Shown: piece after piece, positions 12,919 to 22,142 of the stretch
Position numbering within the stretch: the stretch's first letter is position 1
Layout: each line of letters starts with the position of its first letter
Assembly: GCA_041389925.1 (NCBI GenBank)
Contig: JAWKQX010000006.1
Span: 407,837-471,836, forward strand
Length of the DNA stretch: 64,000 nucleotides
Direction of reading: 5' to 3'
Origin: Kofleriaceae bacterium
Lineage (GTDB): Bacteria > Myxococcota_A > Polyangia > Haliangiales > Haliangiaceae
The notes under the pieces: generated by a model
Told to the model about the DNA's origin: nothing
The model's database searches: none
Seen by the model: only the letters and a program-made list of their open reading frames with translations
Position numbers and translations under genes: made by a program

Positions 12919-13872
12919 TCAGGCGGGGCTGAGCGTGGCCAGGATCGCCTCCGCGGCCGACCAGGGATCGCCGTGGCGCGCCTCGATCTCGGCGGCCAGG
13001 TCCTCGAGGCCACCCCGCTGCGCGAGCGCCTCCGCGACGCGATCGGCGACCAGCGCGCGGAGCAGCTCGGCCAGGTGCGCGGCGCGCCGCCGGACGGCGC
13101 GGGCCTGGGCGCCCGCTCCCTGCCAGTAGGTGGCGCGGTGCGCCTCCACCGCGGCGGCGAGCTCGGTGATGCCCGAGCCGGCGGCGATGCCGCGAGTGGC
13201 GATGGTGCGGACGATCGCCACCTCCTTGCGCTCGCCGTGGGCGCGCAGGTCCAGCATGTGGAGGAGGTCTCGCTCGGTGCGATCGGCGCCCTCGCGATCG
13301 GCCTTGTTGACGACGAGCACGTCGGCGATCTCGAGCAGACCCGCCTTGATCGCCTGGATGTCATCGCCCAGGCCCGGCACCGTCACGACGACGGTGGCGT
13401 GCGCCGCCTTCATCACGTCGACCTCGTCCTGGCCGACGCCGACGGTCTCCACCAGGATCCGCTGGTAGCCCATGGCGTCGAGCACGGCGACGATGTCGAA
13501 CGTCGAGCGCGACAGGCCGCCGAGGTTGCCGCGCGTCGCCAGGCTGCGGATGAAGACGCCCTCGTCGAGCGCGTGGCGCTGCATGCGGATGCGGTCGCCG
13601 AGGATGGCGCCGCCAGAGAACGGCGACGTCGGATCGACGCAGACGACGCCGACGCGCTCGCCCGCGGCGCGGTAGTGCGAGATCAGCGAGTCGACGACGG
13701 TGGACTTGCCCGCCCCCGGGTTGCCGGTGATGCCGAGCACGTAGGCCTTGCCGGTGTGCGGGAACAGCGCCTTGAGCGCGGCGAGCGCGTCCGGGCGTCG
13801 GTCGTCGAGGTCGCGCATCAGGCGGGCGCCGGTGCGGAGGTCGCCTTGCAGGATGGGGTGGATGTCGGTCAT
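12919..13872 (-). CDS. meaB: Methylmalonyl-CoA mutase-associated GTPase MeaB/ArgK
   Basis: P-loop GITGNPGAGKST, followed by DPTSPFSGGAILGDRIRM and VNKADREGA. Full-length collinearity with MeaB/ArgK (SIMIBI G-protein). Confidence 0.85.
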   Translation of the reverse strand: MTDIHPILQGDLRTGARLMRDLDDRRPDALAALKALFPHTGKAYVLGITGNPGAGKSTVVDSLISHYRAAGERVGVVCVDPTSPFSGGAILGDRIRMQRHALDEGVFIRSLATRGNLGGLSRSTFDIVAVLDAMGYQRILVETVGVGQDEVDVMKAAHATVVVTVPGLGDDIQAIKAGLLEIADVLVVNKADREGADRTERDLLHMLDLRAHGERKEVAIVRTIATRGIAAGSGITELAAAVEAHRATYWQGAGAQARAVRRRAAHLAELLRALVADRVAEALAQRGGLEDLAAEIEARHGDPWSAAEAILATLSPA

Positions 13873-13884
13873 GGCGGCTCGCGA

Positions 13885-15102
13885 TCAAGGTGGGGAGCGC
13901 GGCGGCGCCTTGAAGCGCTGCTCGGGCCCGCCCGGGGTGTAGAACTGGAGGGCGCGCACCGGCGCCGTGGACGTGAACGCATGCGGGACGCTGGCGGGGA
14001 GCTGCAGCACGGACGTCGGCGTCACCGCGACCGGCACGCCCCCGACGGTCAGCGCGCCGGCGCCCTCGAGGACATAGAGCAGCTCGGTCTCGCGCTCGTG
14101 CTGGTGCGAGGGCACCGCGGCGCCGGCGGGCAAGGTGAGCCGCGACGCGGACAGCTCCGGGTGCCCGGTGCGGGGCGGGTCGAGGTAGATCGTGACGCCG
14201 CGGCTGGTCGCGGTGGCGTCGGCGGTGCGGACGACGATCGGCCGCTGCGCGGCGGTCGGCGCCGGCGCACCGGCGGGCAGCAGCGGCGTGGGCAGCGTGC
14301 CCTGGCGCGCGATGCGCTCCTCGCCGCCCGGGGTCAGGACCAGGACCGCGCGCAGCGGCGCGGTGGTCGCGGTCAGCCCGCGCACCCCGCCCGCCGGCAC
14401 GAGCACCATGTCGCCGGCTTCGAGCCGCTGCGGCGCGCCGTGGCCGTCGGTGAGGAGCGCCGGCGTGAGCAGCGCCCAGGCCTCGGCGCGGGTGGCGCGG
14501 CGCAGCTGGGTGCTCGCGCCGGCGGCGAGCTCCACCTCGAGCATCGAGGCGGCGTCGTTGCCGGTGTTCTGCTCATCTAGCAGGACGGCCACGCGGAGCT
14601 GCGGGGCGGGGCCTTGTCCCAGCGATGGGACCAAGCGCCGATCGATGACGCTCTGCCCCGACGGGGCGCGGAACGCGAAGGGCAGGCGGATGGTCTGACC
14701 GCGGAGGGGCGCGGCCCAGCCGTACCCGGCCAGGAGCGCGCGCATGCACGTGAGCAGGCGCGCGTCGCGGGTGTTGTCCCTGGCGACGGTCACGGTCGCG
14801 CCCGCGGCGCCGATGTCGATGTCGAAGGCCTGCTCGCCGGCGAGCTGGTAGCCGTCGACGGCCGCCGCGGACGCCCAGCAGAGCTGCGCGCCCTCGTCGA
14901 GCTCGTTCATCGCGTGCTGGATGGCGGCGAGGCGCTCCTCCTGCTGCTCCTGCTCGCTCGCGGCGGGGGCGGGCGCGGCGGCGGCGCGCGCCGGGGCGGG
15001 CGGGCGTGGCCCGGCCGGCGCGGAGCAGGCCAGCGCGGCGGCGAGGCCGAGCGCGAGCGCGGCGGCGCCGCTCGGGCCACCCGCGGTGCGCGAGCCGCGC
15101 AT
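13885..15102 (-). CDS. Lipoprotein with tandem cupin-like domains, hypothetical
   Basis: Signal plus lipobox LALGLAAALAC; Ala/Pro-rich linker. Two regions with cupin-like strand patterns (GDMVLVPAGGVRGL ; ELLYVLEGAGALTVGG ... LQLPASVPHAF). Stop overlaps the start region of the MeaB gene; its own start abuts the B12-domain gene. Confidence 0.45.
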   Translation of the reverse strand: MRGSRTAGGPSGAAALALGLAAALACSAPAGPRPPAPARAAAAPAPAASEQEQQEERLAAIQHAMNELDEGAQLCWASAAAVDGYQLAGEQAFDIDIGAAGATVTVARDNTRDARLLTCMRALLAGYGWAAPLRGQTIRLPFAFRAPSGQSVIDRRLVPSLGQGPAPQLRVAVLLDEQNTGNDAASMLEVELAAGASTQLRRATRAEAWALLTPALLTDGHGAPQRLEAGDMVLVPAGGVRGLTATTAPLRAVLVLTPGGEERIARQGTLPTPLLPAGAPAPTAAQRPIVVRTADATATSRGVTIYLDPPRTGHPELSASRLTLPAGAAVPSHQHERETELLYVLEGAGALTVGGVPVAVTPTSVLQLPASVPHAFTSTAPVRALQFYTPGGPEQRFKAPPRSPP

Positions 15103-20968: not shown

Positions 20969-20969
20969 G

Positions 20970-22142
20970 TCAGCGCTCCACGCAGAGCGCGATGCCCTCG
21001 CCGCCGCCGATGCACAGCGACGCGCCGCCGGTCTTGGCGCCGCGGTGAGCCATGGCGGAGAGCAGGGTCACCAGGATGCGCGCGCCGGAGGCGCCGATGG
21101 GGTGACCCAGCGCGACCGCGCCGCCCCACACATTGACGCGCGCGGGATCCAGGCCCAGGAGCTGGTTGTTCGCCACCGAGACCACGGAGAACGCCTCGTT
21201 GATCTCCCAGAGGTCGACGGCCTTGGGATCCCAGCCGATCTTCTTGCACGCGTTGGTGATCGCCACGGCGGGGGCGGTGGTGAACCACTCCGGGGCCTGC
21301 GCGTGGTAGCCCCAGCTCCGGATCCGGGCGAGGACGTTGGCGCCGCGCTTCTTGGCCTCGTCGGCGGACATCAGCACCAGGGCGGCGCCGCCGTCATTGA
21401 TGGACGAGGCGTTGCCCGCGGTGACCGTGCCGTCCTTCTGAAAGGCGGTGCGCAGCGCGGGCAGCTTGTCGATGTTGCCGCGGCCCGGCTCTTCATCGGT
21501 GTCGATCTTCACCTCACCGCCGCGGCTGGCGACGGCGACGGGGACGATCTCGGCCTTGAACAGGCCCTCTTGCTGCGCGGCCAGCGCGCGCCGGTAGCTC
21601 TCCGCGGCGTGCTCGTCCTGCGCGGCGCGGGAGATCGTGCGATCCTTGGCGCACAGCTCGGCGCAGTTGCCCATGTGCTGGTTGTTGTAGACGTCCCACA
21701 GCCCGTCGTGGACCATCGAATCCACGGTGTCGAGGGCGCCCATCTTGACGCCGCCGCGCACGCCACGGAGAAGATGCGGCGCGTTGGACATGGACTCCAT
21801 GCCGCCAGCGACCGCGATCTCGACTTCCCCCAGCGCGATGGCGCGGGCGCTCTGCACGACCGCCTCGAGGCCCGAGCCGCACACCTTGTTGATGGTGACG
21901 CAGGGGACCGAGGTCGGCAGGCCCGCGCCGAGCGCGGCCTGCCGGGCCGGAGCCTGCCCGGCGCCCGCGGGCAGCACCATGCCCATCGTGCACGCTCCGA
22001 CGTCCGTTGGGGCGACCTTGGCGCGCTCCAGCGCGGCCTGGATCGCGGCCTGTCCGAGCTTGGGTCCGCTGATCGGCGCGAGCGCGCCCAGGAAGCTCCC
22101 GATGGCGGTTCGAGCGGCTCCGACGATGACAACTTCACGCAT
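20970..22142 (-). CDS. Acetyl-CoA C-acetyltransferase (thiolase II)
   Basis: MREVVIVGAARTAIGSFLG ... NKVCGSGL ... NASSINDGGAALVLMS ... GHPIGASGARILVTLL ... CIGGGEG(I)ALC carries the catalytic thiolase motifs. Confidence 0.9.
   Translation of the reverse strand: MREVVIVGAARTAIGSFLGALAPISGPKLGQAAIQAALERAKVAPTDVGACTMGMVLPAGAGQAPARQAALGAGLPTSVPCVTINKVCGSGLEAVVQSARAIALGEVEIAVAGGMESMSNAPHLLRGVRGGVKMGALDTVDSMVHDGLWDVYNNQHMGNCAELCAKDRTISRAAQDEHAAESYRRALAAQQEGLFKAEIVPVAVASRGGEVKIDTDEEPGRGNIDKLPALRTAFQKDGTVTAGNASSINDGGAALVLMSADEAKKRGANVLARIRSWGYHAQAPEWFTTAPAVAITNACKKIGWDPKAVDLWEINEAFSVVSVANNQLLGLDPARVNVWGGAVALGHPIGASGARILVTLLSAMAHRGAKTGGASLCIGGGEGIALCVER

Follow-up and report, generated by a model that had tools for sequence, protein, structure and literature searches.

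A stand-alone B12-binding small subunit and MeaB in a Kofleriaceae beta-oxidation gene string as probable parts of a split acyl-CoA mutase

In the 64-kb stretch of Kofleriaceae DNA analysed here (the window), a B12-binding mutase small subunit and its G-protein chaperone MeaB are encoded among short-chain beta-oxidation genes. Which enzyme do these two proteins serve, and where is its catalytic large subunit encoded? Two answers had been offered in the earlier note, namely a split isobutyryl-/methylmalonyl-CoA mutase with the large subunit encoded elsewhere, or a B12 domain repurposed for sensing or regulation. The underlying claim that the window holds no large subunit was borne out: six-frame tblastn of the 64 kb with four MM_CoA_mutase large subunits gave a best E of about 1, and the Pfam scan of the other open reading frames in the window returned none. 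The flanks on either side of the string extend for 12.9 kb and 41.9 kb, and in the two nearest relatives, L091 and L092, the 10 kb to each side is likewise free of a large subunit. An ordinary split mutase with its large-subunit gene adjacent to the string is therefore not what is observed.

The minus-strand string from thiolase to MeaB (12919-22142) was confirmed by open reading frames with GC3 support and by Pfam and NCBIfam assignments, for which bit scores were compared with the cut-off of each model; gene junctions range from -1 to 44 nt. The first gene encodes a thiolase (acetyl-CoA C-acetyltransferase; 20970-22142, minus strand, as are all genes of the string) with Thiolase_N and Thiolase_C domains (TIGR01930, 414.7 bits, cut-off 240.55), 85% identical to its orthologue in L091. 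After a gap of 1 nt there follows an Hbd-type 3-hydroxybutyryl-CoA dehydrogenase (20090-20968; 3HCDH_N and 3HCDH; NF004474, 394.6 bits, slightly below the cut-off of 408), then a crotonase (19248-20045; ECH_1, 231.7 bits; top NCBIfam match NF004475, short-chain enoyl-CoA hydratase) and ACAD-1, of the short-chain acyl-CoA dehydrogenase type (18094-19239). The latter has the N, M and C domains of Acyl-CoA_dh, among solved structures it comes nearest to mitochondrial SCAD (457 bits), and its GTG start is preceded by a GAGG motif 6 nt upstream. Two lipoprotein genes, lipA (17566-18063) and lipB (16685-17566), complete the first of the two conserved modules of which the string consists, thl-hbd-crt-acd1-lipA-lipB. 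The second, acd2-B12-cupin-meaB-lipoprotein, opens with ACAD-2 (15524-16669), a second SCAD-like protein with ACAD domains that scores 338-345 bits against SCAD-type structures and whose gene is always immediately upstream of the B12 gene in relatives of the clade. It continues with the small subunit (15102-15515), a bicupin lipoprotein (13885-15102) and MeaB (12919-13872; PF03308, 286 bits; TIGR00750, 312.5 bits, cut-off 240.75), and is closed by a fourth lipoprotein gene (12074-12799). No terminator-like sites were found on the minus strand within the string, and as far as gene spacing goes, the genes may be co-transcribed. The gene order beyond meaB is not a misassembly, since an independent Logan assembly (L082) matches positions 9901-15394 at 99.98%. 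A PduO-type cobalamin adenosyltransferase gene (5192-5860, minus strand; Cob_adeno_trans, 190.5 bits), overlapped by a BioB-like gene (5773-6876; Radical_SAM and BATS), is present as had been noted; however, it is located some 7 kb past meaB and so downstream with respect to transcription, rather than 10 kb upstream.

Judged by its sequence, the 137-aa protein belongs to the typical stand-alone, AdoCbl-binding mutase small subunits (TIGR00640, 171.8 bits, cut-off 57.45). Its best matches among solved structures are 2yxb, the small subunit of the Aeropyrum split mutase (1.2e-41), and HcmB (1.4e-39), and the cofactor motif D18-x-H20-x-x-G23 ... S65-x-M67 ... G94-G95 can be read from the translation. 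It is 60-95% identical to orthologues in other genomes whose genes adjoin those of large subunits or lie a few kb away, and 66-70% identical to the small subunits of Streptomyces. In MeaB, the P-loop GNPGAGKS and the NKAD motif are intact. In comparison with L092, a relative likewise without a linked large subunit, dN/dS is 0.064 for the small subunit at a dS of 0.5, the lowest value of the string, and 0.225 for MeaB. The small subunit is under strong purifying selection, and neither protein diverges faster than its neighbours. Identity, orthologues near large subunits and purifying selection together support a split mutase with its large subunit encoded elsewhere. MeaB docks directly on the mutase's Cbl-binding domain, which accounts for the continued linkage of the two genes (PMC9974510). 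A regulatory or light-sensing module of the CarH kind was considered and set aside, as DNA-binding and helical-cap domains are missing, B12-binding is the sole Pfam match, no CarH-type chain occurs among the PDB sequence matches at E<=1e-3, and the gene stays beside that of MeaB.

The type of partner is indicated by the relatives. Kofleriaceae-type Myxococcota have kept the whole string, which recurs in loci L088 and L089, and the core block from acd2 to the last lipoprotein gene recurs in L001, L083, L084, L086, L087 and L092. In the sister clade, every locus with enough flanking sequence (eight of eight: L001, L022, L083, L084 and L086-L089) encodes an MM_CoA_mutase large subunit of about 530 aa, 1.3-6.1 kb past meaB and convergent on the opposite strand. 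This protein has no B12 domain of its own, and no second small-subunit gene was found within 10 kb of it. At the positions of Tyr89 and Arg207 in P. shermanii MutB, Tyr/Arg was taken as the MCM-type signature, Phe/Gln as the ICM-type and Ile/Gln as the HCM-type. The sister-clade large subunit carries Tyr and Arg, in common with the MCMs of human and P. shermanii, and the same signature is displayed by all 114 scorable members of the large-subunit family. Kofleriaceae are the commonest among the named proteins in the best 120 MCM-type matches. In the more distant locus L046, a split large subunit with Tyr/Arg comes immediately after the genes for propionyl-CoA carboxylase, in line with an MCM role. 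The alternative left by the wording "isobutyryl-/methylmalonyl-CoA mutase" can thus be narrowed: a partner of MCM type does lie near the string in the sister clade, but none of ICM or HCM type was found nearby there. MCM is also known in a split, heterotetrameric form (PMC6759758).

The lineage of the window differs from this arrangement. In the window, L091 and L092, glutaredoxin and the BioB-PduO pair occupy the place at which the sister clade has its large subunit, the pair keeping the same relative position in all three. L091 shows a clean deletion of the B12 gene, with the cupin and meaB genes retained, so at least one close relative can do without the small subunit. None of the best 120 MCM-type matches lies on the contig of the window or on that of L092, and none of the three named matches checked by accession came from the genome of the window. 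This subclade may thus lack an MCM-type orthologue or have a divergent one. The large-subunit gene has probably moved away in this lineage.

We therefore favour, with somewhat better than even confidence, the explanation that a split AdoCbl-dependent acyl-CoA mutase has the 137-aa protein as its small subunit and MeaB as its chaperone, the catalytic subunit of about 530 aa being encoded outside the 64 kb, and that the partner is most probably of MCM type (Tyr/Arg) and orthologous to that of the sister clade. What we infer for this genome is where the partner is encoded, to which type it belongs and which substrates are physiological. In such a system, the PduO-type enzyme would provide AdoCbl, and MeaB would dock on the small subunit and gate cofactor loading. 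The loaded small subunit would then assemble with the large subunit and interconvert methylmalonyl-CoA and succinyl-CoA, a step that would dispose of carbon derived from propionyl-CoA, and the thiolase, Hbd, crotonase and two SCAD-type dehydrogenases would oxidise short or branched acyl-CoAs.

The main rival holds that the small subunit is IcmB, paired with an ICM-type (Phe/Gln) large subunit encoded elsewhere, and that isobutyryl-CoA from valine or iso-even fatty acids is converted to n-butyryl-CoA and then, by the SCAD, crotonase, Hbd and thiolase of the operon, to acetyl-CoA. It holds this rank because more distant relatives carry this type of operon with a Phe/Gln large subunit beside the small subunit. 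In L068, with the order thl-hbd-crt-acd-acd-x-large-B12-x-acd-meaB, such a subunit is directly upstream of B12, and it has the same place in L069 and L062, with some of the same beta-oxidation genes; meaB belongs to this context in L068 and L069. Phe/Gln is present in 16 of the 18 loci whose large subunit directly adjoins the B12 gene, and the small subunits of Phe/Gln partners are 62-69% identical to that of the window. The string itself holds every enzyme of butyryl-CoA beta-oxidation, with ACAD-1 nearest to SCAD, and Ratnatilleke et al. are said to have described unlinked icmA and icmB genes in Streptomyces in 1999. Nevertheless, no Phe/Gln large subunit occurs in any Kofleriaceae-type locus seen, the only nearby one in the sister clade being Tyr/Arg, and the best 120 ICM-type matches include no Kofleriaceae-named protein. 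Moreover, acd2 adjoins the B12 gene in the clade at 8-60 nt with no trace of icmA. We consider this pairing rather unlikely.

The small subunit, MeaB and PduO might instead form a common AdoCbl-loading module that serves an MCM-type and an ICM-type large subunit in trans, which would account for the placing of the small-subunit gene with that of its chaperone and with neither of those for the catalytic subunits. A distant locus, L046, provides the model: a single 12-kb string has one MeaB, one small subunit and two large subunits, a Phe/Gln one adjacent and a split Tyr/Arg one directly after propionyl-CoA carboxylase genes, and the 20-kb locus lacks a second small subunit. ICM-partnered and MCM-partnered sequences are intermixed in the small-subunit tree, and the gene context unites an operon logic of ICM kind with the MCM-type large subunit that lies nearby in the sister clade. 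However, this is one locus with limited flanks, beyond which a second small subunit could lie, no ICM-type large subunit was seen in the clade, and we know of no biochemical precedent for one small subunit serving two large ones; such sharing appears improbable. A little less probable again is that, after loss of the large subunit, the small subunit and MeaB have become true orphans in the subclade, either remnants about to disappear or recruits to a non-mutase role, for example cobalamin storage, buffering or sensing. The empty surroundings in the window, L091 and L092, the lack of a best-match candidate on the large contigs of the window and L092, and the loss of the B12 gene in L091 would fit. 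Against this, the dN/dS values of both genes exclude neutral decay in the lineages of the window and L092, the cofactor and GTPase motifs are all intact, neither sensor architecture nor a CarH-type match was found, and the conserved linkage to the PduO adenosyltransferase fits an active AdoCbl enzyme.

Among known systems, split MCM with MeaB (archaea and some bacteria; 2yxb from Aeropyrum pernix) shares the stand-alone Cbl-binding subunit of about 135 aa and, in the relatives, a Tyr/Arg large subunit of about 530 aa lacking a B12 domain, as well as a nearby meaB gene. It differs in that the large subunit here is outside the operon, convergent in the sister clade and missing from the window, that the small subunit is placed within a beta-oxidation string, and that a lipoprotein gene separates B12 from MeaB. 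IcmA/IcmB of Streptomyces cinnamonensis is likewise a two-gene mutase, in which the small-subunit gene can sit away from that of the large subunit, but its Phe/Gln large subunit is not seen in the clade of the window. IcmF fuses small subunit, G-protein and large subunit, which are separate genes here; its model scored the B12 protein at only 77 bits and MeaB at 127 bits, with a cut-off of 1500. For the 2-hydroxyisobutyryl-CoA mutase HcmAB (4r3u) with MeaH, HcmB ranks second among the solved matches to the small subunit, HcmA scores highest among those to the large subunit of the relatives, and the product 3-hydroxybutyryl-CoA would suit the Hbd of the operon. The HCM signature is absent, since the large subunit of the relatives has Tyr/Arg where HcmA has Ile and Gln. 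The mmgABC-type operon of Bacillus subtilis similarly joins short-chain beta-oxidation genes (thiolase, Hbd, ACAD) to the disposal of propionyl-CoA-derived carbon, but by the methylcitrate route, with no B12 mutase and no lipoprotein genes.

The interleaved lipoprotein genes are real, bear lipoboxes and keep their positions across the clade. LipA (NF033768, 44.5 bits, cut-off 40; lipobox Cys38) is a small lipoprotein with a TonB-CTD-like AgmX/PglI C-terminal domain and has positional orthologues in L088, L089, L091 and L092. LipB (68.1 bits with the same model; lipobox Cys31) also ends in an AgmX/PglI domain; its orthologues occur in L086, L088, L089 and L092, and it is absent in L091. Overlaps of 1 nt join the lipA stop to the lipB ATG (TAATG) and the B12 stop to the cupin ATG (TGATG). 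In GltG and GltJ of the Myxococcus gliding machinery, this type of domain is a periplasmic protein-interaction module (PMC11761067). In contrast to these, lipA and lipB encode little beyond the domain, with no FHA, GYF or transmembrane parts, and score 21-39 bits with the full-length GltG model (cut-off 650). The bicupin lipoprotein (Cupin_2; identical to NCBI MEZ4363454.1) has a predicted bicupin fold (AF2 model, pLDDT 88.4) like that of YxaG quercetin 2,3-dioxygenase, OxdC oxalate decarboxylase and the periplasmic Mn-cupin MncA (Foldseek, E about 1e-17 to 1e-15), and its C-terminal cupin has the invariant His-x-His...Glu...His site. It differs from them in sequence (13-20% identity only) and by the addition of a lipoprotein signal and an N-terminal Cys-pair domain. 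In an alignment of 45 sequences, the lipobox Cys26 is present in at least 90%, and Cys75/Cys119 and His333/His335/Glu340/His374 are invariant. The fourth lipoprotein gene, which was missing from the earlier reading, is a member of the conserved block; it belongs to no family (lipobox Cys21) and is the fastest-evolving of the block (dN/dS 0.76). Orthologues with a lipobox directly follow meaB in L001, L004, L083, L084 and L086, and by tblastn it matches the genes of about 231-247 aa after meaB in L087-L089, L091 and L092. The four lipoproteins are clade-specific proteins exported to the envelope, and no evidence makes them part of the CoA chemistry. The kind of enzyme proposed here is already known; what is unusual is the layout conserved in the clade, with four envelope lipoprotein genes interleaved.

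The minus strand of the window (GC ~72%) carries an unbroken run of genes from 12074 to 22142, as judged from third-position GC content, the identities of which were assigned with Pfam and NCBIfam. The run opens with a thiolase (20970-22142, above the TIGR01930 cut-off), a 3-hydroxybutyryl-CoA dehydrogenase (Hbd, 20090-20968) and a crotonase (19248-20045), the latter two being Pfam assignments just below their subfamily cut-offs. An acyl-CoA dehydrogenase with a GTG start follows (ACAD-1, 18094-19239), for which the nearest solved structures are short-chain acyl-CoA dehydrogenases (SCAD). 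The four Pfam families of a butyryl-CoA-type beta-oxidation set are thus present and contiguous. The run continues with lipA (17566-18063) and lipB (16685-17566), which match the AgmX/PglI C-terminal domain NF033768 with 44.5 and 68.1 bits, respectively, against a cut-off of 40, and with a second acyl-CoA dehydrogenase (ACAD-2, 15524-16669), also closest to short-chain enzymes among solved structures. Subsequently, genes are found for a B12-binding protein of 137 aa (15102-15515; TIGR00640, 171.8 bits against 57.45), for a bicupin lipoprotein, here called the cupin protein (13885-15102), and for MeaB (12919-13872; the equivalog model TIGR00750, 312.5 bits against 240.75). From the thiolase gene through meaB the gaps range from -1 to 44 nt, with a stop/start overlap of one base at lipA/lipB and at B12/cupin. 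No terminator-like site was found on the minus strand of the string in a terminator scan, a sigma-70 promoter scan returned nothing informative, and neither a cobalamin riboswitch nor any other RNA element was matched by Rfam in the window. The family assignments and ORF coordinates bear out the gene string described in the earlier note, to whose gene list a fourth lipoprotein gene without a family (12074-12799) must be added directly after meaB, as part of the conserved block.

Several other features of the window were recorded. Upstream of the operon are two subtilase (S8) genes and a gene for a 1125-aa CHAT-domain protein, at 22572-24821 (+), 28123-31248 (-) and 31581-34958 (-); the thiolase gene and the first S8 gene point away from each other, an arrangement kept in L091, one of the two nearest relatives. 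A PhaR-type regulator of PHB/PHA accumulation (52002-52670, +; PHB_acc_N, 100 bits) lies ~30 kb from the thiolase-Hbd genes. The ORF at 39437-47545 (+) encodes 2702 aa with repeats of the Big_1 (15 matched stretches), Invasin_D3 and CarboxypepD_reg families and has the look of a giant surface protein; GC3 artefacts account for several long antisense ORFs within it.

In all likelihood the locus encodes one half, small subunit plus chaperone, of a split AdoCbl acyl-CoA mutase, situated inside a short-chain acyl-CoA oxidation operon, and the catalytic subunit would be encoded elsewhere than in the window. The sole Pfam match of the B12 protein is the B12-binding domain (PF02310, residues 9-123, 87.2 bits against 32.1). 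Its translation contains the complete base-off/His-on motif DxHxxG...SxL...GG, as D18-G-H20-D-R-G23, S65-I-M67 and G94-G95, with Met at the Leu position of SxL, and this cofactor motif aligns with those of 2yxb and HcmB. These two, both stand-alone mutase small subunits, are also the top matches among solved structures (Aeropyrum 2yxb, 1.2e-41; HcmB, 1.4e-39), followed by C-terminal domains of methylmalonyl-CoA mutase (MCM) and then by IcmF; corrinoid methyltransferase proteins are marginal. No CarH-type chain is present among the PDB sequence matches at E<=1e-3. A CarH/MerR-type photoreceptor or sensor is rejected, the DNA-binding domain and helical cap being absent from the protein, so that the regulatory or light-sensing module put forward in the earlier note as its second possibility finds no support. 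MeaB possesses its P-loop (GNPGAGKS) and NKAD motif. MeaB docks directly on the mutase's cobalamin-binding domain by way of the switch I strand (PMC9974510), which accounts for the small subunit and MeaB being kept together even where the catalytic subunit is encoded elsewhere.

The absence of a large subunit from the window was confirmed in two ways. Four MM_CoA_mutase large subunits from related loci, searched against the six frames, gave a best E of ~1, and Pfam matched a mutase domain in none of the remaining ORFs. The ethylmalonyl-CoA pathway was also rejected, since no type of large subunit, not even a fused Ecm, was detected in the six-frame search of the window, a crotonyl-CoA carboxylase/reductase is missing from the annotated window genes, and the two ACADs, at ~381 aa, are ordinary SCAD-like proteins. 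With the B12 protein as query, 80 loci were obtained from species-representative genomes. In the sister clade, all eight loci with enough flank (L001, L022, L083, L084 and L086-L089) encode, on the strand opposite to meaB, an MM_CoA_mutase protein of ~530 aa without a B12 domain, at 1.3-6.1 kb past the meaB stop and separated from it by one to a few variable genes. No other small-subunit gene was found within 10 kb of this large subunit in the eight loci. Aligned with solved enzymes, the protein reads RQYAGF and IARGTY, placing Tyr and Arg at the positions of Tyr89 and Arg207 in P. shermanii MutB, as in the human and P. shermanii MCMs; the same residues occur in 114/114 scorable members of its family. 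At these positions HcmA (4r3u_A) has Ile and Gln (RQIAGF, MAQKEY). A 2-hydroxyisobutyryl-CoA mutase, a reading prompted by Hbd in the operon, is therefore rejected on the Tyr/Arg pair in the large subunit of the relatives. In the Zixibacteria locus L046, a Tyr/Arg split large subunit is encoded directly after genes for propionyl-CoA carboxylase, in support of its being a true methylmalonyl-CoA mutase. That MCM can exist in a split, heterotetrameric form is recognised (PMC6759758). In two of these loci a gene for a contractile-injection-system tube protein (CIS_tube) directly follows the MCM-type large subunit (L083:11647-12264 and L084:11678-12277).

The core block of ACAD-2, B12, cupin, meaB and lipoprotein genes is kept across Kofleriaceae-type Myxococcota (L001, L083, L084, L086, L087 and L092), and L088 and L089 repeat the string in full, with both small lipoprotein genes lying between those for the dehydrogenases. 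L083 and L084 have the core block only, and in L092 (L092:1736-8352, GCA_041916575.1) a 7-kb insertion with an MS-channel-like gene, a Baseplate_J protein and a Hint-domain protein separates lipB from ACAD-2. The string is therefore composed of two modules, thl-hbd-crt-acd1-lipA-lipB and acd2-B12-cupin-meaB-lipoprotein. The lipoprotein gene at 12074 marks the exact point after which synteny with the sister clade is lost. Misassembly at this break is ruled out by an independently assembled Logan contig that matches window 9901-15394 at 99.98% and thereby confirms the gene order past meaB. NCBI MEZ4363454.1, encoded on a 543,886-bp contig of a Kofleriaceae MAG, has exactly the sequence of the cupin protein, and the source organism also occurs in Logan runs SRR28338159, SRR28338160 and SRR28338164, with the thiolase, MeaB and the cupin protein on short contigs; an exact-protein look-up found no match to the B12 protein. 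The breakpoint is occupied by a gene (11309-11983, +) for a protein of 224 aa whose C-terminal domain is a glutaredoxin; the gene is kept in L091 and L092, and in sister-clade genomes its place is taken by the stretch leading to the large subunit. Both relatives (cupin 59-63% and MeaB 80-83% identical to the window; B12 95% in L092) continue as the window does, with the glutaredoxin-domain gene, an EEP-family gene, cNMP/DUF1003, DUF179, GDPD, BioB and PduO, and in the 10 kb to each side neither has a large subunit. The lack of linkage is therefore conserved in the subclade rather than peculiar to one genome. The PduO-type adenosyltransferase gene (5192-5860, -) and the 3' end of a BioB-like radical-SAM gene overlap (pair 5192-6876, -), and in L091 and L092 the pair keeps its distance from the operon. 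The adenosyltransferase gene had been placed upstream of the operon; in terms of transcription it actually lies downstream, ~7 kb past meaB.

Of all genes in the string, B12 is the one under the strongest constraint between the window and L092, with dN/dS of 0.064 at dS ~0.5, compared with 0.225 for MeaB and ~0.17-0.22 for the ACADs. Furthermore, B12 and MeaB diverge from the sister clade no faster than their neighbours, and relaxed selection on the two is ruled out by both observations. Neutral decay of B12 and MeaB is excluded in the lineages of the window and L092, and the purifying selection implies that the small subunit would have a working partner somewhere. The proposal in the earlier note of a split mutase with its large subunit elsewhere was thus essentially right, given the small-subunit family match, the lack of a large subunit in the window and this selection. 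Caution about the partner comes from L091 (ENA ERZ15185078 NODE_117), where the B12 gene is cleanly deleted at L091:9944-10110, the segment orthologous to 15102-15515. All that is left of it are six initial codons (MADSPR), joined in frame with the cupin ORF at ...AGGPS; lipB is also missing, and meaB, with an intact P-loop, and the cupin gene are retained. A second caution is that the best 120 Tyr/Arg matches do not place the partner on the large contigs of the window or of L092.

The partner is probably an MCM-type large subunit, orthologous to the convergent neighbour of the sister clade. An isobutyryl-CoA mutase (ICM)-type partner appears rather unlikely. It is favoured by 16 more distant loci in which a large subunit with Phe/Gln at the signature positions is encoded directly upstream of the B12 gene, among them L068, the operon of which also contains thiolase, Hbd, crotonase, ACADs and MeaB. 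We take Phe/Gln to be the ICM signature from the IcmA/IcmF literature; the sole computed support is that the signature Gln maps to chain index 762 in the IcmF construct, which has 1113 residues, presumably Gln742 if the construct has a 20-residue tag. The pair recurs in 115 of 116 scorable matches to a Myxococcota Phe/Gln large subunit. However, in the Kofleriaceae-type clade no Phe/Gln large subunit was seen near the orthologous block, and no Kofleriaceae name was present among the best 120 of those matches. The phylogeny of the small subunits does not help here, since those with ICM and MCM partners intermix.

That intermixing would be explained if one small subunit, together with MeaB and the nearby PduO, formed a shared AdoCbl-loading module for MCM-type and ICM-type large subunits in trans, a reading we regard as improbable. 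It would also explain why the small subunit is encoded with the chaperone and not with the catalytic subunit, and why the setting is a butyryl-CoA operon despite the MCM type of the nearest large-subunit neighbour in relatives. The only direct hint of such sharing is a string in a Zixibacteria MAG (L046:6450-17657, +), in which meaB, a 204-aa ORF, a Phe/Gln large subunit, the B12 small subunit, an ACAD and a metallo-beta-lactamase are followed by propionyl-CoA carboxylase (carboxyltransferase, biotin carboxylase and BCCP) and then a Tyr/Arg large subunit. One small subunit and one MeaB thus accompany two large subunits of different signature in the 20-kb locus. A true orphan, in which the small subunit and MeaB have no partner, is very improbable: it would fit the deletion in L091 and the best 120 Tyr/Arg matches, none of which lies on the 543,886-bp contig of the window or the 588,833-bp contig of L092, but it is opposed by the low dN/dS of both genes. 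The MCM-type partner is therefore preferred.

The lipoprotein genes are treated as encoding clade-specific, presumably co-expressed, predicted envelope proteins. A lipobox of the PROSITE PS51257 type was located at Cys38 of lipA, Cys31 of lipB, Cys26 of the cupin protein and Cys21 of the ORF at 12074-12799, and in all four the Cys is conserved in orthologues. LipA and lipB consist of little besides the TonB-CTD-like AgmX/PglI domain, which in GltG and GltJ is a periplasmic protein-interaction module (PMC11761067). They are not GltG/GltJ themselves, as they reach only 21.4 and 39.1 bits, respectively, in the NF033760 equivalog against a cut-off of 650, through the C-terminal domain alone. The cupin family has 178 matches, the named ones nearly all from Kofleriaceae or other Myxococcota, and conserves the lipobox Cys, with an invariant Cys75/Cys119 pair and an equally invariant His-x-His...Glu...His site. 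Its AlphaFold model (pLDDT 88.4) displays an N-terminal alpha-beta-beta-alpha-beta domain, weakly similar to lipA (hhalign probability 48%, both Cys aligned), and then a bicupin. The latter resembles YxaG, OxdC and MncA at just 13-20% identity, and a specific function derived from the fold was rejected because the matches are generic. No mechanistic link of the lipoproteins to CoA-ester chemistry or cobalamin was found.

Envelope proteins often evolve fast, and the lipoprotein genes have dN/dS of 0.42-0.76, well above the enzymes; their positions are nonetheless kept. The fastest-evolving gene of the block is the ORF at 12074-12799 (35-48% identity to orthologues, dN/dS ~0.64-0.76), and a lipoprotein gene without a family invariably follows meaB in the clade. 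In L091 the cupin gene has survived on the start codon of B12, which suggests selection for cupin expression from the operon. That four fast-evolving lipoprotein genes hold their places inside a cytoplasmic operon across the clade, together with the bicupin in L091, points to selection for co-expression. The layout with interleaved lipoproteins is conserved and unusual, and the kind of enzyme is itself already known.

Both kinds of split large subunit are labelled 'methylmalonyl-CoA mutase' in source annotations, and two signature residues separate them cleanly. The partner of a small subunit is not assignable from the small-subunit sequence alone. It follows that a B12-domain gene standing alone next to meaB should be interpreted as one half of a split mutase rather than a sensor. 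For the organism, the locus suggests how Kofleriaceae couple the oxidation of short and branched acyl-CoAs to a B12-dependent step, and it predicts a cobalamin requirement.
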